Shown here piece after piece: positions 9,380 through 43,997 of a stretch of 64,000 nucleotides of DNA. The notes under the pieces were generated by a model that saw nothing but the letters and a program-made list of their open reading frames with translations, had not been told where the DNA came from and searched no databases. The position numbers and the translations under genes were made by a program. The stretch lies in assembly GCA_964393345.1 (NCBI GenBank), contig CAYMTJ010000003.1, positions 23,318 through 87,317 on the forward strand, given 5' to 3'. The stretch comes from an uncultured Anaerolineaceae bacterium (GTDB lineage: Bacteria; Chloroflexota; Limnocylindria; Limnocylindrales; CSP1-4). Within the stretch, counting starts at the first letter, position 1, and every line of letters starts with the position of its first letter.

Positions 9380-11314
9380 ATGACCGACACCGCCCGCTCC
9401 ACCGTGCCCGCCGGCGCCGCGATCCGCGAGGACCTGCGCAACGTCGCGATCGTCGCGCACGTGGACCACGGCAAGACCACCCTCGTCGACGCGATGCTCC
9501 GCCAGACCGGGACGTTCCGGGCCAACCAGGCGGTGGTTGACCGCGTCCTCGACTCGGGCGACCTCGAGCGCGAGAAGGGCATCACGATCCTCGCCAAGCA
9601 GACGACCGTCGATCACGGCGGCTTCCGGCTCAACATCGTCGATACGCCCGGCCACGCCGACTTCGGTGGCGAAGTGGAGCGTTCGCTCCTGATGGTCGAC
9701 TCGGTGCTGCTGCTCGTGGACGCCGCCGAAGGGCCCTTGCCGCAGACCCGCTACGTGCTGCAGAAGGCGATGGCCCGGCACCTCCCGGTCGTGGTGGCGA
9801 TCAACAAGATCGATCGCGGCGACGCCCGCCCGGCGACCGTCCTTGACGCTGTCTACGAGCTGTTCCTGGACCTCGGTGCGGACGACCACCAGATCGAGTT
9901 CCCGATCGTCTACACGAACGCCAAGATCGGCACGGCGACGCGGGATCTGGCCGTGCCGGGCACGGATCTGCGGCCGCTCCTGGACCTGCTGGTGGAGGTC
10001 ACCCCGCCGCCGACCTACACGCCGGACCATCCCCTCCAGCTGCTCGTGACCAACCTCTCGTCCAACGAGTACGTCGGCCGGATGGCGGTCGGACGGATCT
10101 GGAACGGGCGCATCCGGACGGGGCAGCGCATCACGGTGGTCCGCGAGGAGGCGGACGACACCGCCGGGACGGTGGAACCGGGTCGGACGGTCACGCTGAG
10201 CGGCACGGTCACGAGCCTCCAGACGGCGCATGGGATCGAGCGCGTCGATATCGAGGAGGCGGGACCGGGCGACATCGTCAGCGTGGCCGGCCTGCCGGAG
10301 GTCACGATCGGCGACACCATCACCGACCCCGCCGACCCGCGACCGATGCCCCGGCTGGACGTCGACGCGCCGACGCTGCGGATGACCTTCGGGGTGAACA
10401 CCTCACCCCTCGCCGGGCGGGAAGGCAAGTATGTCACCAGCCGGCAGATCAAGACCCGCCTCGAGAAGGAAGTCCTCGGCAACGTCTCGATCGAGGTTCG
10501 CCCGGGAACGTCGTCCGAGGCCTTCGAGGTCCGCGGTCGTGGCGAGCTCCAGCTCGCGGTGCTGATCGAGCAGATGCGCCGCGAGGGGTTCGAGCTGACG
10601 GCCTCGCGACCCGAGGTCCTCCTGCGCGAGGTGGACGGGGATGTCCAGGAGCCCTACGAGCGGATCACGATCGACATCCCGCCCGAGTACATCGGCGAGA
10701 TCCAGAGCGCGATGGCCGGCCGCAAGGGCCGCCTCGACCAGATGTCCACCGACACGGACGGTCGCGTCCGGATGGAGTTCGTGTTGCCCGTCCGCGGGCT
10801 CATCGGGTACCGCGGGCAGCTCCTGACGGAGACCCGAGGCACGGCGCTTCTGCACCAGATCGGCGAGGGCTACGGGCTGTGGGCGGGCGAGGTGACGCAC
10901 CGCACGAACGGGGTCCTCGTGAGCGACCGTGCCGGGACCTCGAACGCCTATGGGCTGTTCAACCTCGAGCAGCGGGCCGAGCTGTTCATCGGGGCCGGCG
11001 TCGAGGTCTACGAGGGCATGATCGTGGGCGAGAACAGCCGGTCGGGGGACATGGACGTCAACCCGACGAAGGAGAAGAAGCTCACCAATATCCGGACTCA
11101 CAGTCATGACGAGTCGCTGCGGCTGACGCCACCCCGCCCGCTGACGCTCGAGACGGCCCTGGAGTTCATCGCCGCCGACGAGCTCGTCGAGGTGACGCCC
11201 GCCTCGATCCGGCTTCGCAAGCGGGCCCTCGCCCAGCATGAACGACGCCGGGAGATGGGTCGTGCGGACGATCTGCGGCGCGCCGCCGAGCGCGAGGCGG
11301 ACGGCTCCGGCTGA
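9380..11314 (+). CDS. typA: Translational GTPase TypA/BipA
   Basis: ORF 9308..11314; start at ATG 9380 (MTDTARS). G1 [16 protein letters not shown]3 [13 protein letters not shown]; EF-G-like domains II-V. Confidence 0.9.
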
Positions 11315-11382
11315 CCACCGTCCCGTCGAGCGAGCCCGCGCGAGGAGCCCATTGCGTCGGACGCCGGCAGGCCTGTACCGTC

Positions 11383-12668
11383 CGATGGTGCCTCGCCGCC
11401 CCCGGACCCTGACCGGTTCGCGTCTGCTGGTCGCGCTCGTCGTCGCGCTCACCGCGCTCGCGACCGAGCCCCCGATGCCGGCCGACGCGGCCTCCGAACG
11501 CCTCCCGGACCTGCGAGCGGCGCGCATCCGGGACCTGCGCATCGAGCGCCTCGGTGACCGACGGGTCCTGCGGTTCACCGGGATCATGTGGAACAAGGGC
11601 AAGGGACCGTTCGAGATCCGGGCGAAGCGCGCGACGCGGAAGGCTCCATGGGACGTGGATCAGATCGTCTACGACTCGGCCGGCCGCACCCGCCGGGTCC
11701 AGACCGACGCGAGGATGCGCTACGCGGACGACGGCCACGACCACTGGCACGTCCGCCGCATGCTCACGTATCACCTGTGGGGCGCGAACGGGACGACGAG
11801 CGACGGCAAGATCGGGTTCTGCTTCTTCGATACGAACCTGGTGGACGGATCGCTGCCGCGGTCTCCGTCCCGCAAGGTCTACACGGAGTCGATGTGTGGC
11901 CGACGGGACTCCCTGCGAACTCGCAACGGGATCTCGGTCGGGTGGGGAGACCGATACGCCTGGGACTTCGCGTACCAGTGGATCGACATCACCGGGCTCG
12001 AGGGCGGGACGTACATGCTCCGCGCCGCCGTCGACCTCTACGGCTCCTTCGTCGAGCGTTCCGACTCGAACAACTGCGCCTGGTCGCGGATCCGGTTCGG
12101 CGACAGCGGGACGAAGGTGAAGGTCCTCGCGAGCGGGTTCGGGTGCATCGATGACCACTCCGCCTCGCCATATGCCGACGACGTGGCCTGGGCGATGGAA
12201 CAGGGGGTCAGCGCCGGCTGCGATGCCGATATGTTCTGCACGAACGAGCCGCTGACGAGGGCACGCCTCGCGGCTTTCCTGGCCCGCGCCTACGACCTGC
12301 CGCCCGCCACCGAGGACTGGTTCCGCGACGACGAGGGCACCGCGAACGAGGCGAGCATCGACCGCGTCGCCGAAGCGGGCCTGATGACCGGGTGCGGCAC
12401 CACGACGTTCTGTCCCAAGAAGCGCGCCACCCGGGAGCAGGTGGCGAGGGCGATCGCGGTCGCGATGTCACTGCCGCCCGCCACGACCGACCACTTCGAT
12501 GACGACGATGGTCGTCCGCTCGAAGCCGACATCGATCGGGTCGCCGAGGCCGGGGTCATGGCGGCGTGCGGCGAGCGGCGCTTCTGTCCCACGGGCTCGG
12601 TGTCGCGCGGGCAACTGGTCCGGTACCTTCGGCTGTCGCTCGAACCGCCCGATGTGCCGGACCCATAA
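11383..12668 (+). CDS. Secreted lysyl-oxidase-like catalytic domain protein with three C-terminal SLH-like repeats
   Basis: Start at ATG 11383 (MVPRRPRTLTGSRLLVALVVALTALA, signal peptide). Blocks align to the LOX catalytic core: HDHWHV (Cu His triad), KIGFCFFDT (LTQ Lys region), WGDRYAWDFAYQWIDITGLEGGTYML (LTQ Tyr region), ERSDSNNCAW. Then three ~50-aa repeats (F-DD-G...IDRVAEAG-M--CG---FCP---TR-Q) resembling S-layer homology domains. Confidence 0.75.
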
Positions 12669-17471: not shown

Positions 17472-17580
17472 CCCGACCCAGACCGGCCGCCGCGGTCGTG
17501 CCTGGCCACGCCCCTCCATCTGGCGATGCCCGTGCCACCCGCTCGTGTGGGCAAGGCGGCGTTCGGTACCATTGCGGCCG

Positions 17581-20325
17581 ATGTCGAACCCCAGTCCCCT
17601 GGACCCACCGATCGCGGCGCTGCCCGCTGCGGAGATCCGCCGACGCTTCGTCGCCTTCTTCGAAGCGCGCGGTCACACCGCGGTCCCGAGTGCGAGCCTC
17701 GTCCCCGCGGGCGACCAGACGCTGCTGTTCACGAACTCCGGCATGGTCCAGTTCAAGGAGGTCTTCACCGGCGCGGAGACGCGGTCGTACACGCGCGCCG
17801 TCGACTACCAGCGCTGCCTCCGTGTCGCCGGCAAGCACAACGACTTCGAGGAGGTCGGGCGGACGCCGCGGCATCACACGCTGTTCGAGATGCTCGGCAA
17901 CTGGAGCTTCGGCGACTACTTCAAGCGCGAGGCGATCCACTGGGCGTGGGAGTTCCTGACCGTCGATCTCGGCATCCCGGCGGATCGGCTGGCGGCGACC
18001 ACCTACCGCGACGACGAGGTCTCCCGCGCGGTCTGGCGCGACGAGATCGGTCTTCCGCCGGAGCGGATGGCCGCCTGGGGCGACGTGGACGCGGGCGATG
18101 ACAAGAACTTCTGGCGGATGGCGGACACCGGTCCGTGCGGGCCGTGCAGCGAGATCCACGTCGACCGCGGCGCGCACCTGTCCGAGGGACCCGAGTGCAT
18201 CCCGGACCACTCCGAGACCTGCCCGCGCTGGCTCGAGATCTGGAACCTGGTCTTCATGGAGTTCGACCAGCGGCCGGACGGACGCGTGCCGCTCCCGTTC
18301 CCGAGCGTCGACACCGGCCTCGGGCTCGAGCGCCTGGCCAGCGTCCTCCAGGACGTGCCGACGAACTACGACACGGACCTCTTCACGCCGATCCACGCCC
18401 GCATGCGCGAGCTCCTCGGGCACGACCCCGACGCGTTCGAGACGGAGCGCTTCAGCTACCAGGTGATCGCGGATCACTCGCGGGCCGTGACGTTCCTCAT
18501 CGCGGACGAGGTGCTGCCGTCCAACGAGGGTCGCGGCTACGTGCTCCGGCGGATCCTGCGCCGGGCCGTCCGCCACGGGCGGCTCCTGGGTCGGACGGCG
18601 CCGTTCATGGCCGAGACGGCCGCCGTCGTGATCGATTCGATGGGGACGGCCTACCCGCACCTGGTCGAGCGACGGGACGAGATCCTGGGCACGATCGAGC
18701 GCGAGGAGGCCCAGTTCGCCCGGACGCTCGACGCGGGCTCGCGACTGCTCGACGCGGCGATCGCCCCGATCGCAACGGAGAGGCGCGTCGTCGGCCGCCG
18801 ACCGGAGGACCTACCGGACGGTGCGCCACTGCTCGACGGGGAGACCGCGTTCAAGCTGCACGACACATTCGGGTTCCCGATCGACCTGACCATCGAGCTG
18901 GCGGCCGAATCCGGTGTCGGGGTCGACCGTCCCGGGTTCGACGCGGCGCTCGATCGACAGCGACAGCGATCGCGCTCGGGTCGCAAGGCCGAACTGGCGA
19001 GGCACGCGGAGTCCTCGACGCTCTACCAGGACATCCAGGCCCGTGGCGGCGACACGGCCTTCCTCGGCTACGAGACGACGACGGTCGAGGCGCGCGCCCT
19101 CGCGATCCTCCGCGACGGCACCTCGTTCGACGAGCTGACCGGTCACGGCGAAGCGGAGATCGTCCTGGATCGGACGCCGTTCTACGCCGAGGGGGGCGGC
19201 CAGATCGGCGACCGCGGCACGATCCGGGAGCCGGGTGGCGGCAGCGAGCTGTTCGACGTGGCCGATACGCAGCGCCCCGTCGGGGGCCTGATCGTCCATC
19301 GCGGGACGCTGCGTGGCCGTCTCAGCGTCGGTGCGACCGTAGAGGCGGTCGTCGACGCGGGTCGCCGCGCCGACACCATGCGCAACCACACGGGGACCCA
19401 TCTGCTGCATCGGGCCCTCCGCAACGTCGTCGGCGAGCGCGCCCGTCAGGCGGGATCCCTGGTGACCCCGGACGGTCTCCGCTTCGACTTCCCGTTCGAC
19501 CGCGGCCTGACCGCGTCCGAGATCGAGGCGATCGAGGACGAGGTGCGCGCCGTGGTCCGTGACGACCGCCCGGTCACGATCGCCTTCATGCCGATGGCCG
19601 AGGCCATCGAGCGCGGCGCGGACGCGTTCTTCGACGAGAAGTACGGCGAGACCGTCCGCACGATCCGGGTGGCGGACTACAGCTTCGAGCTGTGCGGCGG
19701 GACCCATTGCCGTGCGAGCGGCCAGATCGGCGGGTTCGCGATCACGAGCGAGCGGAGCATCGGCTCGGGGACGCGCCGCATCGAGGCGGTGACCGGCGTC
19801 GCGGCGGACCGCCTCGCCCGTGAGCGCGCCCAGGCCCTCGACCGGGTCGCCGCGGCGGTCGGAGCCCCGAACGTGGAGGCGATCGAGGACCGCATCGTCG
19901 CGATCCAGGAGGAACTGCGCGAAACGCGGCGCCGACTCAGGGCGGGCGCCGGCGCCTCGGTCCCGAAGCCGGCCGACCTCGCCGCTCGCGCCGAGGAGGT
20001 GGCGCCCGGCGTCCACGTCCTGGTCGCCAGTGCCCCGTTCGACTCGCTGGACGCGCTCAAGGCGTCAGCCAAGGCGGTTCGAGGGGAGCTGCCATCGGGG
20101 GTGATCGCCATGATCCTCGAGGCCGACGCGCCGCACCTGTTCGTGACCGTGTCCGACGACCTCGTCGAGCGGGGGGTCTCGGCCGGGGACCTCGTACGGG
20201 TCGCGGCCGGACCGCTCGGGGCGAAGGGCGGCGGCCGCCCGGAGATGGCTCAGGCATCGGGCACGAACCGGGCCGGGATCGGCGAGGCGCTCGCGGCGAT
20301 CCGGGCGGCCGTCGGGCCGGCCTGA
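17581..20325 (+). CDS. alaS: Alanine--tRNA ligase
   Basis: ORF 17545..20325; ATG 17581 (MSNPSPLD). FTNSGMVQFK, catalytic and editing domains (HTGTHLLH, C-terminal DHHA1-like). About 915 aa. Confidence 0.9.
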   Translation: MSNPSPLDPPIAALPAAEIRRRFVAFFEARGHTAVPSASLVPAGDQTLLFTNSGMVQFKEVFTGAETRSYTRAVDYQRCLRVAGKHNDFEEVGRTPRHHTLFEMLGNWSFGDYFKREAIHWAWEFLTVDLGIPADRLAATTYRDDEVSRAVWRDEIGLPPERMAAWGDVDAGDDKNFWRMADTGPCGPCSEIHVDRGAHLSEGPECIPDHSETCPRWLEIWNLVFMEFDQRPDGRVPLPFPSVDTGLGLERLASVLQDVPTNYDTDLFTPIHARMRELLGHDPDAFETERFSYQVIADHSRAVTFLIADEVLPSNEGRGYVLRRILRRAVRHGRLLGRTAPFMAETAAVVIDSMGTAYPHLVERRDEILGTIEREEAQFARTLDAGSRLLDAAIAPIATERRVVGRRPEDLPDGAPLLDGETAFKLHDTFGFPIDLTIELAAESGVGVDRPGFDAALDRQRQRSRSGRKAELARHAESSTLYQDIQARGGDTAFLGYETTTVEARALAILRDGTSFDELTGHGEAEIVLDRTPFYAEGGGQIGDRGTIREPGGGSELFDVADTQRPVGGLIVHRGTLRGRLSVGATVEAVVDAGRRADTMRNHTGTHLLHRALRNVVGERARQAGSLVTPDGLRFDFPFDRGLTASEIEAIEDEVRAVVRDDRPVTIAFMPMAEAIERGADAFFDEKYGETVRTIRVADYSFELCGGTHCRASGQIGGFAITSERSIGSGTRRIEAVTGVAADRLARERAQALDRVAAAVGAPNVEAIEDRIVAIQEELRETRRRLRAGAGASVPKPADLAARAEEVAPGVHVLVASAPFDSLDALKASAKAVRGELPSGVIAMILEADAPHLFVTVSDDLVERGVSAGDLVRVAAGPLGAKGGGRPEMAQASGTNRAGIGEALAAIRAAVGPA

Positions 20326-20341
20326 TGTCGAACGGCTGACG

Positions 20342-21604
20342 ATGGCCTTCTGGCGCCGGATCTGGCAGCGCGACGAGGGGCAGGGTCTGGCGGCGTGCAC
20401 GGCGCTTGACGTCGGCACGGAATTCGCGAAGGCGCTCGTCTTCGACATCGACAGCGCGGGTCACGGGACGGTCCGCGGGGTCGGACGGAAGCGCCAGGGC
20501 CTGTCGCACATGCAGTCGGGGACGGTCGCCGACATCGCCGCCGTCGTCGACAACTGCGCGGTCGCCCTCCAGGAAGCCGAGGAGATGGCGGGCTTTCGCC
20601 CGTCGCAGGTGGTCATCGGGATCGCGGGCGAACTGGTCAAGGGGTTCACCACGACGCATTCGCAGGAGCGCCGCAAGCCGGACCAGCCCATCACCGAGGC
20701 CGAACTCCAGAAGCTCATCGACAACGTGCAGCGCGAGGCGCTGCGCGAGGCGGAGCGCGCCATCACCTGGGAGACGGGCCTGCCCCAGGTGGACGTCCGC
20801 CTGGTCCACGCCGCCGTCACCGGCGCGGCCATCGACGGCTACGCCCTGACCAACCCGGTCGGGTTCCAGGGACGCCACGTCAAGATCGGGATCTTCAATG
20901 CCTTCGCGCCTCTCGTCCACCTCGGCGCGCTCCAGAGCGTGGCGAGCCAGCTGGATCTCGAGCTGCTCGAGATCGTCGCGGAGCCGTACGCGGTCGCGCG
21001 GGTCCTCGGCAGCGAGCACATCCGCCAGACCGGGGCGCTGTTCGTGGATGTGGGCGGCGGGACGACCGACGTCGCGCTGGTCCGCCATGGCGGGATCGAG
21101 GGCACCCGCATGTTCGCCCTCGGCGGTCGCGCGTTCACCAAGAGCCTCGCGGACCGGCTGGACCTGCCGTTCCCGCGGGCCGAAGCGCTCAAGGTGGATT
21201 ACGCCCGCGGCATCGACGTGGAGGGCCGCCCGGAGGTGGCCGCGATCGTCGGCGACGACGTCCGGGTGTGGGCGGCCGGGGTAGAACTGGTCATGGAGGA
21301 ACTGTCCGGCGGCGACCTGCTGCCGGGCCGGATCTTCCTGTGCGGTGGTGGCTCACGGTTGCCCGAGATCGGCGCCGCGCTCCGATCTGAGGCATTCTGG
21401 AAGGGCCTGCCGTTCGCCCGACCACCAGAGGTCACGGTGATGGCGCCCGACCAGATCGAGACGATCTCCGATGCCACGGCGCTGCTGGTCGACCAGCAGG
21501 ACGTGACGCCGCTGGGCCTCGCGTTCCAGGCCATCGAGCTTCAGACCACCGAGGACGCGCTCGATGCGGCGCTCCGGCGTGTCCTCAGGGCGATGAAGGT
21601 CTGA
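20342..21604 (+). CDS. Actin/Hsp70-fold ATPase, FtsA-like (FtsA/PilM family)
   Basis: Phosphate-1 ALDVGTEFAKALVF; SHS2/1C-like insert; adenosine/phosphate-2 LFVDVGGGTTDVALV; IVAEPYAVARVLG; C-terminal amphipathic LDAALRRVLRAMKV. Only 16 bp after the alaS stop. Confidence 0.65.
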   Translation: MAFWRRIWQRDEGQGLAACTALDVGTEFAKALVFDIDSAGHGTVRGVGRKRQGLSHMQSGTVADIAAVVDNCAVALQEAEEMAGFRPSQVVIGIAGELVKGFTTTHSQERRKPDQPITEAELQKLIDNVQREALREAERAITWETGLPQVDVRLVHAAVTGAAIDGYALTNPVGFQGRHVKIGIFNAFAPLVHLGALQSVASQLDLELLEIVAEPYAVARVLGSEHIRQTGALFVDVGGGTTDVALVRHGGIEGTRMFALGGRAFTKSLADRLDLPFPRAEALKVDYARGIDVEGRPEVAAIVGDDVRVWAAGVELVMEELSGGDLLPGRIFLCGGGSRLPEIGAALRSEAFWKGLPFARPPEVTVMAPDQIETISDATALLVDQQDVTPLGLAFQAIELQTTEDALDAALRRVLRAMKV

Positions 21605-21606
21605 CC

Positions 21607-23430
21607 GTGGGGACCGGCGTCATCTACCTCGATATCGACGACGAGATCACGTCGGCGGCGGCGCGCATCCGGGACGTGCCGGGCGGCCGCGTCGCGGTGG
21701 TCCTGCCGCAGGGGTCGCGGGTGGCGACGTCACGGATCAACTTCCGGCTCCTCGCCCGCGACGCCGGGATCCATGGCAAGCGGCTGTCGATCGTCGCCGG
21801 TGATGCGGCGACGCGGTCCCTCGCCGCATCGGCCGGCTTGGCCACGTTCAGCTCGGTCATGGAATACGAGGGCAGCCTCGAGCCCGGTGCGACCGACACG
21901 CCGGACGCCGAAGCCGGGGAGACCGCGCGCGTCCCGACCGCTCCCCGCCGGCGCCGGGGCGCGAAGGCCACCGACGTGTCGCCGCAGCAGGCGACGCTCG
22001 ACGAGATGGAGGCGGCCGAGTTGGCGGCCGCCGCGGCGGCGCTCGAACGCGAACGCGGCTGGGTCACCTCGGCGGCCGACCTGACCGCCCCGGCCGCCGC
22101 CGATCCCGCGGTCGCCCGCGAGACGCCGCGCGCCCGTCCCGCAGGGCCTGCGGCGACGCCGCCGTTCCCCGGCGCCCCGATCCGCGAGCCGGCCCGGAGC
22201 GGCGGCAACCGCGCGGCGTCGGCGGTGCGCGAGACGCCGACGCGCGCCCGCGGTGGCGCGCGCCTCGCGATCGCCCTCGTGACGGCGCTGGTCGTGCTGG
22301 TCGCCGGCGTCGGGACCTATCTGTTCCTGCCGGCAGCGACCATCGTCGTGACGCCGCGGGCCGACGCGGTCACGCCGGTCGCCCTGACGATCGCGGCGGA
22401 CCCCGCCGCGAGCGAACCGGACCCGGAGCGGGCGGTCGTGCCCGCGGAGATCGTGACCGTGGACGTCAGCGTCAGCGAGACGTTCCAGGCGACGGGCAAG
22501 CGGGTCGAGGCGACGAAGGCCACCGCGATCGTCCGGTTCCGCAACAAGGACTTCACGCGCTCGAACACCATCCCGGCCGGCAGCGTCGTGTCCACGAACA
22601 ACGGCATCCGATTCACCACGGACGCCACGATCGTCGTGCCCCGCGCGAACATCGTCGGCCTCCAGGTGTTCCCCAAGACCGCGACGGTCGCGGTCACCGC
22701 GGTCAAAGCCGGGCCGGAAGGCAACGTCGAGCCGAACACCATCGTCGTGATCCCCAAGGGTGAGGAGCCGATCTCGCTCGACGTCAACAACCCGGATGAA
22801 GGGAGCGGCGGGACACGCACCGAGTTCCCGAAGATCGCGCAGGAGGACATCGATGCGGCGCTGGCCGCCCTCCAGCCGGCATTGGAGACCGCCTTCCGGA
22901 CGCGTCTCGGCGACCCGACGATCGCGTCGCCGGGCGCCACGGTCTTCGCCGCCACCGCGGTCCTTGGCCTCGCGACGCCGTCCGTCGACACCGCGACGCT
23001 GCTGGACCAGGAGGTCCCCACCTTCGAACTCGGACTCAGCGCCACCGGGACCGCCACCGCCGTCGACGAGGGCCCGGTGGCCGAGGTCGCGGGCGCGCGC
23101 CTCGCGGGGACCATCGACGATGGTCACCGGCTCGTGGAGGGCTCGGTCAAGGTGGACGTCGACCCCGCGATCGTGTCGGGCGGTCGCGTGACGTTCCCGG
23201 TGACCGCGACGGCGAGCCAGGTCCCGATCCTGGACGCGGCGGCGCTCAAGGCCTCGATCCTGGGTCTCAGCCTCGCCGACGCGCGCGCGGCGCTCGAACC
23301 GTACGGCCGCGTCGAGCTCAGCGCCTGGCCCGACTGGGTCGGCTCCATCCCGACCATCGACGGCCGCGTCGACCTGCGGGTCTCGGGCGAAGTCCTCATC
23401 GACACGGCCGATCCGTCGGCACCGCCGTGA
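21607..23430 (+). CDS. Single-pass membrane protein: cytoplasmic N-domain, Pro/Ala-rich linker, 1 TM, extracytoplasmic beta-rich domain with a Baseplate_J-like block
   Basis: GTG 21607 is 2 bp after the FtsA-like stop. TM LAIALVTALVVLVAGVGTYLFL at about aa 215-237. Block TIPAGSVVSTNNGIRFTTDATIVV...VTAVKAGPEGNVEPNTIVVIP recalls the PF04865 signature (IPAGT-V-T--G--F-T...V-A---G--GNV). Stop overlaps the ruvX GTG start. Confidence 0.55.
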   Translation: MGTGVIYLDIDDEITSAAARIRDVPGGRVAVVLPQGSRVATSRINFRLLARDAGIHGKRLSIVAGDAATRSLAASAGLATFSSVMEYEGSLEPGATDTPDAEAGETARVPTAPRRRRGAKATDVSPQQATLDEMEAAELAAAAAALERERGWVTSAADLTAPAAADPAVARETPRARPAGPAATPPFPGAPIREPARSGGNRAASAVRETPTRARGGARLAIALVTALVVLVAGVGTYLFLPAATIVVTPRADAVTPVALTIAADPAASEPDPERAVVPAEIVTVDVSVSETFQATGKRVEATKATAIVRFRNKDFTRSNTIPAGSVVSTNNGIRFTTDATIVVPRANIVGLQVFPKTATVAVTAVKAGPEGNVEPNTIVVIPKGEEPISLDVNNPDEGSGGTRTEFPKIAQEDIDAALAALQPALETAFRTRLGDPTIASPGATVFAATAVLGLATPSVDTATLLDQEVPTFELGLSATGTATAVDEGPVAEVAGARLAGTIDDGHRLVEGSVKVDVDPAIVSGGRVTFPVTATASQVPILDAAALKASILGLSLADARAALEPYGRVELSAWPDWVGSIPTIDGRVDLRVSGEVLIDTADPSAPP

Positions 23431-23924
23431 GCACGATCCTCGGCCTGGACCTCGGGGAGCGGCGGGTCGGCGTCGCGATCGCCGACGACGAGGCGGGCGG
23501 CGCCCGACCCCTGACCACGCTGCGTCGGCGCCGGGCCGTCGGCGACGACGCCGCGGACCTCGCGATGCTCGTGGCGTCACATGATGTCGCGGCACTCGTC
23601 GTCGGCCTGCCGCTGGAGGCCTCCGGCGACGAGGGGACGCAGGCGGTCGTGACGAGGGCCTGGGGCGAAGCGGTAGCCGCGGTCCTGCGATTGCCGGTAA
23701 CCTTTTGTGACGAACGCCTGACCAGTCACCTCGCCGAGGAACGGCTGGGCCCGATGCCGCGTGGGCGTTCGGGCGGGCCGCCGTCGCGAACCCAGCGTGA
23801 TGCCTACCGCGCCCGTGTCGATCGCGAAGCGGCCGCGATCATCCTCCAGGACGCCTTGGACGCCCGTGCGGACGCCCGGTCGGCGGCGGCCGACGAACCC
23901 GACTCGATGGAGACGCACCGATGA
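23427..23924 (+). CDS. ruvX: Putative pre-16S rRNA nuclease / Holliday-junction resolvase-like YqgF (RuvX)
   Basis: ILGLDLGERRVGVAIADD N-terminus typical of YqgF/RuvC-like RNase H fold; conserved position upstream of mltG. Confidence 0.8.
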   Translation: MSTILGLDLGERRVGVAIADDEAGGARPLTTLRRRRAVGDDAADLAMLVASHDVAALVVGLPLEASGDEGTQAVVTRAWGEAVAAVLRLPVTFCDERLTSHLAEERLGPMPRGRSGGPPSRTQRDAYRARVDREAAAIILQDALDARADARSAAADEPDSMETHR

Positions 23925-25294
23925 GCCTCCGCTCCGGCGGACGACCCCGCGACGGCCGCGCGCCGCAGGCGCGCCCCTTCGATCCCGACGCGTACGCGAC
24001 GGCCGACCAGCCGCTGCTCGTCCCCGTGCGCCAGGGCGGTCGCGGGGGTCGCGGCGGAGGCAGCGGGATCGCCGGACTGCTGCGCTTCCTGATCTTCGCG
24101 CTGATCCTCGGGGGGATCGTCCTCGGCGTCCTCCTGACCGCCCTCCGCCCGCTGGTGGACAGCGCGATCCTCGGGTGGGCCCACGACAACCCCGCGGCGG
24201 CGATGAACATCGCGTTCGTGAAGGAGTTGGTGCGCGAGGATCTCGGGACCGCGCTGACCGACCCGGTCTCCGAGGACGACGCGCAGGCGGAGTTCGTCGT
24301 GGCCGCCGGCGACACCGCGTCGGCCATCGGGGCCCGGCTGGAGAACGAGGGGCTCATCCGCGACCAGCGCGCGTTCCTGTTCATCGCGCTCGACCGCGGA
24401 TTGACCGGCGACCTCCAGCAGGGGACGTTCCTGCTGCGCAAGAACATGACCCCCGACGAGGTCGTCACCGCGCTGCTTGACCCGCCCGCCATCCCGTACG
24501 TCGAGGTGGCCCTGCGCACCGGGCTCCGCCTGGAGCAGGTCACGGCGAAGCTCCAGACCCTGCCGCTCCAGCTGGATCCGCGCGAGTTCTACGACATCGC
24601 GATCGATCCGCCCAAGTCGCTGATCGACGACTACCCGTGGCTGCGCAAGATCCGCGCGGAGGGCGGCGCCGAAGGGGCGTCGCTGGAGGGGTTCCTGTGG
24701 CCCGCGGCCTACAAGGTCCTGCCGGACACGACGGCCGACGAGCTCATCCGGCTGATGCTCGACAACTTCATCGAGAACGTGGGGGAGGAGCGCCTCACGG
24801 TCCCCAAGGAGCGCGGTCTGACGTTCTACCAGGTGATCACCCTGGCCTCGATCGTCGAGCGCGAGGCCGTCCTCGACGAGGAACGGGCGCTCATCGCGGG
24901 GGTCTACCAGAACCGGCTCGACGGGCTGCCGGGGATCAAGAACAAGATCCTCAACGCCGACCCGACCGTCATCTGGCTTGACGACACGATGGAGCTCGCC
25001 AAGCTCGACTTCGAGACGTGGCAGCAGTACTCGTTCTGGTCGCCGCCGGACGTCCCGATGAAGGAGGTCGTGCCGACCGAGGGCCTCGAGGGCTACCAGA
25101 CGTACCTGTACCCGGGCCTGATCCCGGGGCCGATCGCGACGCCGACGCTGCCGTCCATCGACGCGGCACTCGAGCCCGACACCGCCGACAAGTTCCTGTA
25201 CTTCGTCGCGATCCCCGACGGCGACGGAAAGCACTCGTTCGCCAAGAACGCCAAGGAATTCGACGCGCTGCTCCGCGAGTACGGGTACCGGTGA
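23921..25294 (+). CDS. mltG: Endolytic murein transglycosylase MltG (YceG family)
   Basis: N-terminal TM after a Gly/Arg-rich tail; LysM-like and YceG catalytic blocks (LASIVEREA, GLPGIKNKILNADPTVIW, LYPGLIPGPIATP). Confidence 0.85.
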   Translation: MSLRSGGRPRDGRAPQARPFDPDAYATADQPLLVPVRQGGRGGRGGGSGIAGLLRFLIFALILGGIVLGVLLTALRPLVDSAILGWAHDNPAAAMNIAFVKELVREDLGTALTDPVSEDDAQAEFVVAAGDTASAIGARLENEGLIRDQRAFLFIALDRGLTGDLQQGTFLLRKNMTPDEVVTALLDPPAIPYVEVALRTGLRLEQVTAKLQTLPLQLDPREFYDIAIDPPKSLIDDYPWLRKIRAEGGAEGASLEGFLWPAAYKVLPDTTADELIRLMLDNFIENVGEERLTVPKERGLTFYQVITLASIVEREAVLDEERALIAGVYQNRLDGLPGIKNKILNADPTVIWLDDTMELAKLDFETWQQYSFWSPPDVPMKEVVPTEGLEGYQTYLYPGLIPGPIATPTLPSIDAALEPDTADKFLYFVAIPDGDGKHSFAKNAKEFDALLREYGYR

Positions 25295-37173: not shown

Positions 37174-37959
37174 ATGGGATTCGCGGATTCGCTGCTGTCG
37201 ACCGGCGAGCGGGTCATCCACCGCGAGAAGCAGCACTGGTTCGTCTTCCTGTGGGGCGCGCGACTGACCCTCGCCGCGGCCGTGGTGGCGATCGTGGTCA
37301 TGATCGTGGTCAGCGGGATGGCCCAGCAGGGCTTGAGCGGGACGGTGCGCGACGTCCTCGGCTGGGTCACCGTCGTCCTGCTCGTGGGGGCGCTCCTGAA
37401 CCTGGGCTGGACGATCCTGCGCTACATCAACCAGGAGTACCTGATCACCAACCGGCGGGTCCTCCAGGTGTCCGGTGTCCTGAACAAGTCGTCCACGGAC
37501 AGTTCGCTCGAGAAGATCAACGATGCGGTGCTGACCCAGTCCATCTTCGGCCGCATCTTCGGCTTCGGTGACCTCGACGTGCTCACGGCGGCCGACGTCG
37601 GCATCGACCGCTTCAAGATGATCGTGGACCCGATCGGGTTCAAGAAGGCGATGCTTGACGCCAAGCACGAGTTCGAGGTGGACCTGGAGCGCCAGGGCTG
37701 GGCCCCCGGCCCGCCGGTCCGCGCGGCGGCGTCGAGTGGGTCGTCGGACGACGGCAGCGACGCGAACACCGCGACGACCTTCGCGCCGCCGGGGCCGTCG
37801 GCCATGCCCGCGGCACCCACCGCGGCCACGTCGCCACGCGACCTGTCGCCCGATGAGTTGACGCGGACGCTGTCCAATCTCGCGGACCTGCGCGACCGAG
37901 GCGCGATCACGCTCGAGGAGTACGAGGCCAAGAAGGACGAACTCCTCGGTCGGCTGTAG
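37174..37959 (+). CDS. Bacterial PH-domain (bPH_2/YdbT-like) membrane protein with C-terminal SHOCT domain
   Basis: Two TM helices then YLITNRRVLQVSG...DLDV pattern of bPH_2; Ser/Ala/Pro-rich linker; C-terminal LADLRDRGAITLEEYEAKKDELLGRL matches SHOCT. Confidence 0.6.
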   Translation: MGFADSLLSTGERVIHREKQHWFVFLWGARLTLAAAVVAIVVMIVVSGMAQQGLSGTVRDVLGWVTVVLLVGALLNLGWTILRYINQEYLITNRRVLQVSGVLNKSSTDSSLEKINDAVLTQSIFGRIFGFGDLDVLTAADVGIDRFKMIVDPIGFKKAMLDAKHEFEVDLERQGWAPGPPVRAAASSGSSDDGSDANTATTFAPPGPSAMPAAPTAATSPRDLSPDELTRTLSNLADLRDRGAITLEEYEAKKDELLGRL

Positions 37960-38006: not shown

Positions 38007-38639
38007 GTGTTCGAACTGACGTCCGACAAGATCATCCTGATCGCGTTCTTCCTGCTGGTCGGGTTCCCGGTCCACGAGTTCGCGCACGCGTTCGTCGCCT
38101 ATCGCCTGGGCGACGGCACGGCCAAGATGTTCGGGCGGCTGACGCTCAACCCGGCCGTCCACTTCGACCCGCTCGGCGGCCTGATGCTGGCGGCTTCGGT
38201 CCTGGCCGGCGGGTTCGCGTTCGGCTGGGCCAAGCCCACCCCGGTGAACCCGAGCAACCTGCGCGACCGTCGCAACGGAGAGGTGCTGGTCGCGCTCGCG
38301 GGGCCGGCGTCGAACCTGATCATGGCCGCCGTCATGGCCGTTGTCTTCCGGATCCTGCTGGAGACCGATTTCTTCATCTCGGCGCCGGACATCGTGTTCC
38401 AGGTGATCTTCTACTTCGTCGCCTACAACGTGGTCCTGGCCGTCTTCAACCTGCTGCCGATCCCGCCACTGGATGGTTCGAGCCTCCTGTTCCGTCTCCT
38501 GCCGCTGCAGTACGCGTGGCAGGTCCGGCCGTTCCTCCAGCAGTACGGGATCTTCATCCTGATCGCCTTCATCTTCCTGGGGGGTCCCATCATCGGGCCG
38601 ATCATCAGTGGCATCACCGGCTTCCTTCTGGGGATCTAA
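38007..38639 (+). CDS. Site-2 protease family (M50) membrane metalloprotease, short form
   Basis: HEFAHAF (HExxH) in the first TM; conserved LNPAVHFDPLGG and NLLPIPPLDG (LDG motif). Confidence 0.75.
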   Translation: MFELTSDKIILIAFFLLVGFPVHEFAHAFVAYRLGDGTAKMFGRLTLNPAVHFDPLGGLMLAASVLAGGFAFGWAKPTPVNPSNLRDRRNGEVLVALAGPASNLIMAAVMAVVFRILLETDFFISAPDIVFQVIFYFVAYNVVLAVFNLLPIPPLDGSSLLFRLLPLQYAWQVRPFLQQYGIFILIAFIFLGGPIIGPIISGITGFLLGI

Positions 38640-41592: not shown

Positions 41593-42260
41593 TCGTCGCG
41601 CTCGATGGGCCCGGGTCGTCGGGCAAGAGCAGCGTCGGGGCCGCCGCGGCCGCCCTGCTCGGGTACCGCTTCTGCGACACGGGGCTCCTCTACCGCGCGG
41701 TGACGTGGCTGGCGGAGCATCGTGGCGTGGCCGTGGACGATCCCGTCGCGCTCAGCGCGCTCGTCGCCGAGGTGGAGCTGGTCCCCGACGAGCTCGGGCG
41801 GCTGTCCCGCGTCCTCGTCGACGGGACGGAACACACCGACGACGTCCGGAGTCCGGCGGTCGATGCCGCCGTGTCGGCGGTCGCCGCGGTACCGATGCTT
41901 CGTGACGCGCTGCTCGCCCGCCAGCGGGACCTGGCCGCGGATGGCTCGATCATCATGGCCGGCCGTGACATCGGCACCGTCGTGCTGCCCGACGCGGATC
42001 TCAAGATCTTCCTCGATGCGTCGGTCGAGGAGCGCGCCCGACGACGGGCCGAGGAGCGCGGCCTGGCGATCGACGGCCCGGAAGCCGAGGAGATCCTCGA
42101 GGCCCTGCGGCGACGCGACGACCTCGACCGGAACCGGCCCGTGGCACCGCTCCGTCCGGCGACGGACGCCCGGATCATCTCGACCGATGGCAACGCGTTC
42201 GAGGACACGGTGGAGGCAGTCGTGAGCACCATCCGCGACGCTGCCGCGAGACTCGCGTGA
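41589..42260 (+). CDS. cmk: Cytidylate kinase
   Basis: P-loop VALDGPGSSGKSS, LLYRAVT, lid region; GTG start overlaps the rluB stop. Confidence 0.85.
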   Translation: MIVALDGPGSSGKSSVGAAAAALLGYRFCDTGLLYRAVTWLAEHRGVAVDDPVALSALVAEVELVPDELGRLSRVLVDGTEHTDDVRSPAVDAAVSAVAAVPMLRDALLARQRDLAADGSIIMAGRDIGTVVLPDADLKIFLDASVEERARRRAEERGLAIDGPEAEEILEALRRRDDLDRNRPVAPLRPATDARIISTDGNAFEDTVEAVVSTIRDAAARLA

Positions 42261-43009
42261 CCGACGCCGGCGCAACGACGCCGACCCCCGCGCCCGCGCC
42301 CGTCGACGCCCCGGAACCCATCGACGGCTCGGTCACTCCGCTCATCCTGGCCGTCGCCTTCGTGTCGCGGTTCTTCGCCCGCGCGATCAGCCGCATCCGC
42401 TTCGAGGGCGACCCCGACGCGATCCCCAAGACCGGGCCGCTCATCATCGCGGCGAACCACGCGTCGAACTTCGATCCCGTCGTGCTCGGTGCCTGGCTCG
42501 CGCCCCGGCTCGGGCGCCGGATGCACTGGCTCGGCAAGAAGGAGCTGTTCGACTGGCCGATCCTCGGCTGGCTGGCGCGCAACGGCGGGGTCCATCCGGT
42601 GGACCGCGATGCCGCCGACGTCGACGCCTTTCGGCTCGCCAAGCGCATCCTCGACGAGGGGCACGCGCTGTTCGTCTTCCCGGAGGGGACCCGCAGCCGG
42701 GACGGCGCCCTCCAGGTCGCGAGGGACGGGGTCGCGGTGCTGGCCCTGCGTACGGACGCCACGATCCTGCCCATCGGGATCAGCGGCTCGCAGCGTGTCT
42801 GGCCGCGCGGTCAGAAGCTGCCGCACCCGGGCGGTCGCGTCTCGGTGCGGATCGGGCGCCCGTTCCGTCTCGCCGACGAACTGCCCGCCGACGTGGATCG
42901 CAAGGCCGCGAAACGCCTCGCCACGGACCACATCATGCGGCGCATCGCCGAGCTGCTCCCCGTCGACCAGCGAGGTGCCTACGGAGGGTCCGACGAACGT
43001 CCCGTGTGA
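42257..43009 (+). CDS. plsC: 1-acyl-sn-glycerol-3-phosphate acyltransferase family (PlsC-like)
   Basis: NHASNFD (HX4D) and FPEGTRS motifs. Confidence 0.75.
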   Translation: MTDAGATTPTPAPAPVDAPEPIDGSVTPLILAVAFVSRFFARAISRIRFEGDPDAIPKTGPLIIAANHASNFDPVVLGAWLAPRLGRRMHWLGKKELFDWPILGWLARNGGVHPVDRDAADVDAFRLAKRILDEGHALFVFPEGTRSRDGALQVARDGVAVLALRTDATILPIGISGSQRVWPRGQKLPHPGGRVSVRIGRPFRLADELPADVDRKAAKRLATDHIMRRIAELLPVDQRGAYGGSDERPV

Positions 43010-43019
43010 TAATCGACGC

Positions 43020-43997
43020 ATGGGAACCGTCCAGGAGGTCCGCATCGCCAAGCGCACCGGCTTCTGCTATGGCGTGCGCGAAGCGATCGACAAGGCCAAG
43101 GAATCGGCGGCCGCCGGGAAGACGACGCACACCCTCGGTCAGGTCGTCCACAACGACGGGGTCGTGCGCGACCTCAAGGATCTCGGGATCCGGACCGTCG
43201 ACACCCTCGACGACGTCGACCACGGGGCGGCGGTCGTCATCCGGGCGCATGGCGTACGGCCGGACGTCCTGGAGCGCGCCGACGCGCGCGGCCTCGAGGT
43301 GATCGACGGGACCTGCACGTGGGTGATCGCCGAGCAGCGCGAACTGCGCAAGCTCGTCGACGAGGGCTACACGATCGTCCTGCTCGGCACCCCGAACCAT
43401 CCCGAGGTGGTCGGCCTGCTCGGCTTCGCGCCCGACGCGATCGTCGTCGACGAGGAGGAGGAGTGGGAGGCGGCCGTCCCGCGCCGCAAGAAGCTCGCGC
43501 TGATCAGCCAGTCCACGCAGCCGCCCTGGAAGTTCGAGCGACTCGCCGCGCTGATGGTCTCGCGCTCGCACGAGCTCAAGATCATCAACACGGTCTGCCC
43601 GGTCACGATCCGCCGCCAGGAGGACACGATCGAGCTGGCACGGGACGTGGAACTGATGGTGGTCGTGGGCGGCAAGTCCAGTGCGAACACCAAGGAACTC
43701 ACGCGCCTGTGCGAGATCAACGGGACGCACGCCGTCCAGATCCAGGGCGTGAAGGACCTGACCGATCCGGCCGTCTTCGACGGCAGGACCGTCATCGGGG
43801 TGACCGGTGGCACGTCCACGCCGATCGAGGACCTGCGCGAGGTCGCGCACTGGATCCTCGCGAACGCCGGGACGCCCGAGGTCCAGCGCGACGCCTCCGC
43901 GCTCGCTGACGCCGCACTCGCCGATGCGGCCACACCGGCCGGACGGACCACCTCCCTCCCGAACCCGCCGCGCGTCATCGCCTCCGGCGCCGCCTGA
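43020..43997 (+). CDS. ispH: 4-hydroxy-3-methylbut-2-enyl diphosphate reductase (IspH/LytB)
   Basis: ATG 43020. Conserved Cys in FCYGV, CTWV and VCPVT contexts; [16 protein letters not shown]. Confidence 0.85.

Follow-up and report, generated by a model that had tools for sequence, protein, structure and literature searches.

Which proteins are encoded by the two genes that separate alaS from ruvX in an uncultured bacterium of the Chloroflexota class Limnocylindria, and do these proteins act together? The locus lies in a 64-kb stretch of genomic DNA (assembly GCA_964393345.1, contig CAYMTJ010000003.1, positions 23,318 to 87,317), hereafter termed the window; unless another locus is named, coordinates are given within the window. 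An earlier reading of the DNA letters (the original prediction) had described gene 1 as an FtsA/PilM-type actin-fold ATPase and gene 2 as a single-pass membrane protein with a phage baseplate-like outer domain. Gene 1 (20342–21604) encodes a divergent FtsA/PilM-family actin-fold ATPase of 420 aa, and gene 2 (21607–23430), located directly 3' of it, starts with GTG and encodes a bitopic membrane protein of 607 aa; both are on the forward strand, as are all features from alaS to mltG. Our preferred reading, to which we assign a probability of about 0.55, is that the two genes form a lineage-wide two-protein module, in which the FtsA/PilM-type ATPase would hold a bitopic, baseplate-derived adaptor and thereby couple the cytoplasm to the envelope. 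No description of this gene pair was found in the searched literature, where Baseplate_J was found only in the settings of phages, extracellular contractile injection systems (eCIS), and type VI secretion systems (T6SS). The module combines known types of parts in an unprecedented combination.

Gene 1 and its relation to FtsA

The protein encoded by gene 1 matches the Pfam family FtsA (50.6 bits, cutoff 31.8), with weaker Pfam matches to MreB, EutA, Hsp70, and PilM_2. The best NCBIfam model is ftsA TIGR01174 (E = 2.6e-29), with EutJ, PilM, and MreB as the runners-up. Nonetheless, the score of this model (102.5 bits) is well under its equivalog cutoff of 175.85, and NF007009 is below its cutoff as well (52.3 vs 409). 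The same is true for the PilM family models TIGR01175 (28.8 bits vs 133) and PilM_2 (15.1 vs 27), and no match to Pfam SHS2_FTSA was obtained at E ≤ 1. When gene 1 was compared with solved structures in PDB, either as a single sequence or as a profile of 28 orthologs, the top match in both cases was FtsA (7q6f; E = 3e-13 and E = 1.8e-15, respectively; residues 18–292), whereas MreB was found in the profile search with E = 3e-6. The AlphaFold2 (AF2) model of gene 1 is poor (mean confidence score, pLDDT, of 56), since the input homologs are all 87–92% identical, and the fold-search ranking was therefore taken qualitatively: the best 29 Foldseek matches are all PilM, FtsA, or EutJ, above Hsp70 and MreB. 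Complexes of FtsA with an FtsN peptide and of PilM with PilN are among the best structural matches (7q6i, 2ych, 5eou), and PilM was also matched in 3jc8. Based on the profile scores and structure matches, gene 1 was assigned to the FtsA/PilM branch, and by the curated criterion it is not an FtsA equivalog; on sequence grounds, it is a divergent, paralog-like member of this branch of actin-fold ATPases. The fold type proposed originally is thus upheld by Pfam FtsA, TIGR01174, PDB, and Foldseek, and it is not that of a generic Hsp70 or sugar kinase.

All three nucleotide-binding motifs can be recognized in the alignment with FtsA. The phosphate-1 motif DVGTEFAK (residues 23–30, 20408–20431), in which D23, G25, T26, and K30 are invariant among the aligned orthologs, pairs with D-I-G-T of FtsA. 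The phosphate-2 motif DVGGGTTDVALV (residues 236–247, 21047–21082), invariant from D236 to D243, pairs with DIGGGTMD with high posterior probability, and the adenosine motif CGGGSRLPEI (residues 334–343, 21341–21370), invariant from C334 to P341, pairs with LTGGGAQI. No break occurs in the alignment across the 1C region specific to FtsA, where RLVHAAVTGAAIDGY.ALTNPVGFQG is aligned with good posterior probability; the pLDDT of the AF2 model is below 50 in this region. The 2B region, which in FtsA is the binding site for the FtsZ tail, appears to be shortened in gene 1, since the stretch bounded by the aligned anchors is 36 residues long, compared with 63 in FtsA.

Both termini of gene 1 carry candidate membrane-binding segments, whereas no transmembrane (TM) segment is predicted. 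The C-terminal amphipathic helix ALDAALRRVLRAMKV (residues 406–420, 21557–21601), predicted from sequence as a candidate membrane-targeting sequence, has a hydrophobic moment of 0.68–0.79 (ALDAALRRVLRAMK 0.73) and a charge of +3; by the same measure, the membrane-targeting sequence of Escherichia coli FtsA has a moment of 0.57. The N-terminal cationic amphipathic peptide AFWRRIWQR (residues 2–10, 20345–20371) precedes the first β-strand and has a hydrophobic moment of 0.70 (96th percentile among the 9-mers of this protein) and a charge of +3. Both segments are near-invariant over the loci compared, in agreement with the C-terminal helix of the original prediction. To our knowledge, canonical FtsA proteins have no such N-terminal extension; the peptide is reminiscent of the N-terminal membrane-binding helix of MreB from Gram-negative bacteria.

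Gene 2 and its baseplate-derived outer domain

The outer part of gene 2 is the most unexpected component of the pair. The ectodomain (residues 244–607, 22336–23427) has the fold of contractile-tail baseplate wedge proteins (gpJ/gp6/gp47 class). Within it, residues 298–406 (22498–22824), which include a GPxGNV motif, match Pfam Baseplate_J (PF04865; 36.5 bits, cutoff 21.1) and the PHROG 6 family (phrog_6, "baseplate wedge subunit"; E = 1.4e-13). The ectodomain thus belongs to the Baseplate_J class both by sequence profile and by its wedge fold, as the likeness to baseplate J/gp47 noticed in the original prediction had suggested, and we take it to descend, by exaptation, from a wedge protein of a contractile-tail baseplate. 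Searches of PDB with the gene 2 sequence gave nothing meaningful, and no match to PilN, helix-turn-helix, or RodZ_C domains was found for gene 2 in the Pfam and NCBIfam scans.

The wedge proteins gpJ of phage P2, gp47 of Mu, gp6 of T4, TssF, Afp11, and Pvc11 are soluble parts of contractile tails, encoded together with sheath, tube, gp25-like, and gpI/gp7-like genes. In contrast, the wedge domain of gene 2 is anchored by a TM helix outside the membrane, is fused to a cytoplasmic head, and is encoded by itself within an operon of housekeeping genes; genes for sheath, tube, gp25-like, or gpI-like proteins were found neither in the window nor at the related loci. Nor is it similar at the BLAST level to sequenced phages: a tblastn search against 50,697 phage genomes yielded no match.

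On the cytoplasmic side, gene 2 starts with a globular head (residues 1–90, 21607–21876), which appears to be a STAS-like α/β domain with the motifs YLDxDDEIT and GSRxATSRINFRLL. The head is followed by a disordered Ala/Pro/Arg-rich linker (residues 91–217, 21877–22257; pLDDT below 50 except in one helix) and by a single TM helix with its N-terminus inside (residues 219–243, 22261–22335), which shows a Kyte-Doolittle maximum of 2.39 and an Arg-rich N-terminal flank and is matched by a helix at residues 218–239 of the structure model. Of the layout given in the original prediction, the linker, the single TM helix, and the outer domain stand, whereas the proposed N-terminal domain of ~215 aa has to be revised, as its globular part comprises only residues 1–90 and the rest is linker. 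The linker varies between 87 and 200 aa among relatives (column identity 0.30). The predicted linker helix (Q)TLDEMEAAELAAAAAA (residues ~130–150, 21994–22056; pLDDT ~80) was retained, as judged by eye, in approximately one-third of 36 aligned relatives, namely in the subclade nearest to the window, and is missing from the others. This modeled helix may represent a short linear motif for the binding of, e.g., gene 1.

The head has no sequence-level Pfam match to STAS and differs from STAS anti-sigma antagonists of the SpoIIAA type by its location within a membrane protein and by the absence of a partner kinase or phosphatase nearby. An invariant loop, GSRxATSR (residues 36–45, 21712–21741), follows a β-strand and opens a helix of the head; T41 is invariant and S42 nearly invariant in both gene 2 alignments. 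The loop is located roughly where STAS proteins such as SpoIIAA bear the regulatory phosphoserine, and by this analogy control by phosphorylation is a possibility.

Operon, distribution, and coupling of the two genes

The comparison of 83 loci by tblastn, supplemented with three loci (L084–L086) from the most divergent branch, revealed gene 1 directly 5' of gene 2 in all 83 loci and in the three additional ones, which retain the gene order although the identity of gene 2 is as low as 31–38%. Among the 83 loci, alaS was detected upstream of the pair in 73, and ruvX and mltG were detected downstream in 79 and 76, respectively; the loci lacking one of these genes are mostly short contigs. No ftsZ or ftsQ was observed at any locus compared. 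An exhaustive profile search for relatives returned 8,745 clusters of 50% identity at E ≤ 1e-3 and 1,274 under the stricter limit of ≤1e-30; the 150 listed cluster matches are overwhelmingly full-length or cover both ends of the profile. The scan of one genome per species of the Genome Taxonomy Database (GTDB) showed that at least 503 genomes encode a relative. Nearly all of the 80 genomes kept from this set bear Chloroflexota or Limnocylindria in their titles; one short contig is titled Ca. Eisenbacteria. Relatives with a named source are from "Candidatus Limnocylindrales" or from Chloroflexota metagenome-assembled genomes and bear generic annotations such as "cell division FtsA domain-containing protein" and "baseplate J/gp47 family protein." The pair reported beside alaS in the original prediction is thus kept at every related locus examined; neither a generic fold of gene 1, nor absence of a phage-like fold from gene 2, nor loss of the pair among relatives was found. 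In our preferred reading, the two genes constitute a vertically inherited module that is apparently lineage-wide in Limnocylindria, and not a mobile element.

The genes compared at these loci are conserved to different degrees. The mean identity to the window over the 83 loci is the highest for gene 1 (88.2%), followed by translation elongation factor P (EF-P, 87.0%), MnmA (78.7%), alanyl-tRNA synthetase (74.6%), the gene 2 head (73.6%), RuvX (64.0%), MltG (59.6%), and the gene 2 ectodomain (52.5%), and the same ranking was obtained from pairwise distances for 48 complete loci. Gene 1 is therefore as constrained as EF-P, the head is well conserved, and the tether and ectodomain drift, as would be expected for cytoplasmic parts that cooperate. 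In the 48 complete loci, the distance matrices of gene 1 and of the gene 2 head are correlated with r = 0.82. A partial r of 0.51 (permutation p ~5e-4) remains once the mean housekeeping distance is regressed out, compared with 0.18 for alaS, 0.17 for ruvX, 0.26 for efp, and 0.42 for mltG. This correlation is supportive but weak, because adjoining genes share their history. Docking of gene 1 onto gene 2 is what we infer from translational coupling, invariable adjacency, and modest co-evolution, by analogy with FtsA-FtsN and PilM-PilN.

The distances of MltG deserve separate mention. With the housekeeping signal removed, they retain a partial r of 0.42 with gene 1 and of 0.39 with the gene 2 head, compared with 0.13–0.26 for alaS, ruvX, and efp. 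These values may point to a functional tie to the lytic transglycosylase, or similar rate variation alone may account for them.

Apparent fusions of the two genes were inspected as possible Rosetta-stone proteins and rejected. In the 980-aa protein P0047 (L087, 4001–6943), which joins FtsA and Baseplate_J, out-of-frame sequence takes the place of the gene 1 C-terminus ahead of gene 2, and the fusion is a frameshift artifact. The 671-aa protein P0145 has an Arg/Pro-rich tail near the gene 1 C-terminus that does not resemble gene 2 and was read as a similar artifact. Further over-long "fusion" calls in public protein sets are P0156 (FtsA with the DHHA1 domain of alaS) and P0177 and P0504 (both Baseplate_J with RuvX). 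Such calls at the alaS-ruvX locus could mislead surveys of domain architecture.

In the window, the pair belongs to a tightly packed co-oriented block. It starts with alaS (17545–20325; alanyl-tRNA synthetase, Pfam tRNA-synt_2c 622 bits, tRNA_SAD, DHHA1), the stop of which at 20325 is separated by 16 nt from the ATG of gene 1 at 20342. The TGA of gene 1 (21602–21604) is followed after 2 nt by the GTG of gene 2 at 21607, with GAAGG ~9 nt 5' of this codon. The stop of gene 2 and the start of ruvX (YqgF; 23427–23924, Pfam RuvX 105.6 bits) share GTGA (23427–23430), and the ruvX stop overlaps at 23921–23924 with the start of mltG (23921–25294), encoding a lytic transglycosylase of the YceG family (Pfam YceG 199.6 bits). 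The open reading frames (ORFs), the 16-bp gap, the 2-bp spacing, and the overlap with ruvX described in the original prediction were confirmed by the ORF list and the junction sequences, and all motifs quoted there were found in the translations. The reading frames of genes 1 and 2 are supported by a GC content at third codon positions of 0.91–0.93, and no terminator-like or sigma-70-like site was found on the forward strand between 17000 and 27500. Base composition is uniform over the window, the GC content of the pair matching that of its surroundings. The survey of neighbors, which covered the whole window, revealed otherwise housekeeping genes (a Mur ligase gene, relA/spoT, hisS, aspS, typA, iscS, mnmA, pepP, efp, scpA/B, ispH, and others), and no FtsZ signature, ftsQ, phage, pilus, or other cytoskeletal genes were found in it. 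With alaS and ruvX as the neighbors, the location outside a division and cell wall (dcw) cluster holds as originally described.

Three further observations concern other parts of the window. An ORF at 11238–12668 joins a lysyl-oxidase domain and an S-layer homology (SLH) domain and occupies the same relative position in loci L001 and L002; lysyl oxidases anchored to the wall are unusual in bacteria, and the SLH domain suggests that this lineage has an SLH-binding cell wall polymer. Located 3' of xerD, a gene for a bPH_2 and SHOCT membrane protein (37174–37959) precedes a gene for an M50-type peptidase (38007–38639); this order is constant, even in distant relatives (L084, 20213–21530; L086, 20229–21527), and thus represents another conserved pair. 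Finally, the longest ORF of ispH (42489–43997; LytB domain in residues 184–455) overlaps the preceding gene (42257–43009) by ~500 nt, and the true start of ispH is probably located well 3' of 42489.

Proposed role and alternatives

The analysis established the families, folds, and topology of the two proteins, the operon structure, class-wide synteny, the ranking of conservation, and the absence from phages; from these we infer how the proteins may bind each other, attach to the membrane, polymerize, and serve the cell. Gene 1 probably binds ATP and would reach the inner face of the membrane via its amphipathic terminal peptides. Gene 2 would be a bitopic adaptor, in which a STAS-like cytoplasmic head is connected by a long flexible tether and one TM helix to the wedge-derived ectodomain. 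The ATPase, as a monomer or a polymer, would grip the head or the linker of gene 2, and its nucleotide-dependent assembly in the cytoplasm would be coupled to where the wedge-like domain resides in the cell wall space, or to how it oligomerizes. The pair likely serves in the growth of the envelope, in its division, or in its shape, possibly in conjunction with MltG, the gene of which is co-transcribed.

Comparable pairs are known for other actin-like proteins. The nearest sequence relatives of gene 1 are FtsA proteins, with which it shares the ATP motifs, the predicted C-terminal amphipathic helix, and a bitopic membrane protein as the neighbor, and to which it can be aligned across the region of the 1C-type insert; FtsA binds the cytoplasmic N-terminus of FtsN (PDB 7q6i). 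The differences from FtsA with FtsN or FtsQ are the score below the equivalog threshold, the apparently shorter 2B, the extra N-terminal amphipathic peptide, and the absence of dcw context in gene 1, as well as the presence in gene 2 of a STAS-like head and a baseplate-wedge ectodomain instead of POTRA or SPOR domains. The domain layout of gene 2 is that of RodZ, in which a globular cytoplasmic domain binding MreB is connected through a disordered linker and a single TM helix to a β-rich outer domain, and very high conservation, as seen in gene 1, is also typical of MreB. The resemblance to RodZ is architectural only: the RodZ head is a helix-turn-helix, the RodZ outer domain has no relation to Baseplate_J, and gene 1 is of the FtsA/PilM type rather than of the MreB type by the PDB profile search (E = 1.8e-15 for FtsA vs 3e-6 for MreB). 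PilM and PilN have the same gene order, with the ATPase ahead of the bitopic protein, and structures of PilM (3jc8, 2ych) are among the top matches of gene 1. However, PilN contributes only a short N-terminal peptide to PilM and has a small ferredoxin-like periplasmic domain, the PilM models are far under their cutoffs for gene 1, and no further pilus genes are located nearby.

Several other explanations of the locus have to be weighed. It is possible, but rather unlikely, that gene 1 is the one true FtsA of this lineage, i.e., the membrane tether of the Z-ring, which has moved beside alaS, and that gene 2 is a new divisome component similar to FtsQ or FtsN. The top sequence matches to FtsA (TIGR01174 and PDB), the length equal to that of E. 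coli FtsA together with the C-terminal amphipathic helix, the name "cell division protein FtsA" given to the orthologs by JGI and NCBI, the EF-P-like conservation that suggests an essential role, and the absence of a second ftsA from the window are all consistent with such a relocation. These points are countered by the subthreshold equivalog score, the missing SHS2_FTSA match, the apparent shortening of 2B, and the absence of ftsZ and ftsQ from the window and all loci examined, and furthermore, ftsA adjoins ftsZ in Chloroflexota other than Limnocylindria (PMC10608941). We consider it doubtful, and less probable than a relocated FtsA, that genes 1 and 2 are functionally unrelated neighbors that are merely co-transcribed. 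While bacterial operons often mix housekeeping genes, in this case alaS, ruvX, mltG, pepP, and efp, and the inspected fusions were rejected as evidence, unrelated genes would hardly explain why the pair stays adjacent at every locus, down to 31% identity of gene 2, with a spacing of 2–3 nt in the window and its close relatives. The head of gene 2 is, moreover, far more conserved than the rest of the protein, its distances follow those of gene 1 better than those of alaS, ruvX, or efp, and bitopic partners are typical for FtsA/PilM proteins.

The two remaining explanations are very improbable. The absence of other tail genes from the window and the related loci, the chromosomal position fixed over at least 80 species, and the lack of tblastn matches in phage genomes, of matches in IMG/VR, and of PADLOC hits make it unlikely that gene 2, alone or jointly with gene 1, is today a remnant of a prophage or tailocin or a factor of phage defense or superinfection exclusion, and the GC content, which matches the surroundings, also disagrees with such an origin of the locus. 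The homology to Baseplate_J and PHROG 6 and the fastest evolution of the ectodomain, as expected of a surface protein under phage pressure, are the points in favor of it. Similarly slight is the probability that the pair is a remnant or the core of a pilus, competence, or secretion platform of the PilM-PilN type: PilM is level with FtsA in the fold search and the order of the genes agrees with pilM-pilN, whereas both PilM models score below their cutoffs, gene 2 has no PilN match, and neither pilO/P/Q nor genes for pilins or secretion ATPases were found nearby.

Within the preferred reading of an ATPase-adaptor module, a bolder version is conceivable, in which the wedge-like ectodomains form a baseplate-like ring or lattice outside the membrane, steered by FtsA-like polymers through the STAS-like heads. 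We regard this version as speculative and quite unlikely. If it is true, a phage-derived extracellular structural element has been domesticated as a core part of cell division or of the growth of the wall in a class of bacteria that is abundant and essentially uncultured, and the pair might stand in for functions that canonically depend on FtsA.

Growth, division, and surface machines of bacteria are organized by pairs in which an actin-like protein works with a bitopic membrane adaptor, such as MreB-RodZ, FtsA-FtsN, and PilM-PilN. The present pair would be a new one of unexpected composition, in which an FtsA paralog, conserved to the degree of a translation factor, is combined with a STAS-like head and with a phage baseplate wedge protein that occurs by itself outside the cell. 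Baseplate wedge proteins have so far been reported, in the searched literature, only within contractile machines (phage tails, tailocins, eCIS, and T6SS). Since the module seems to be universal in Limnocylindria, bacteria that are abundant in soils and lakes and for which almost no cell biology exists, it offers a concrete and testable entry into the building and division of their envelope.

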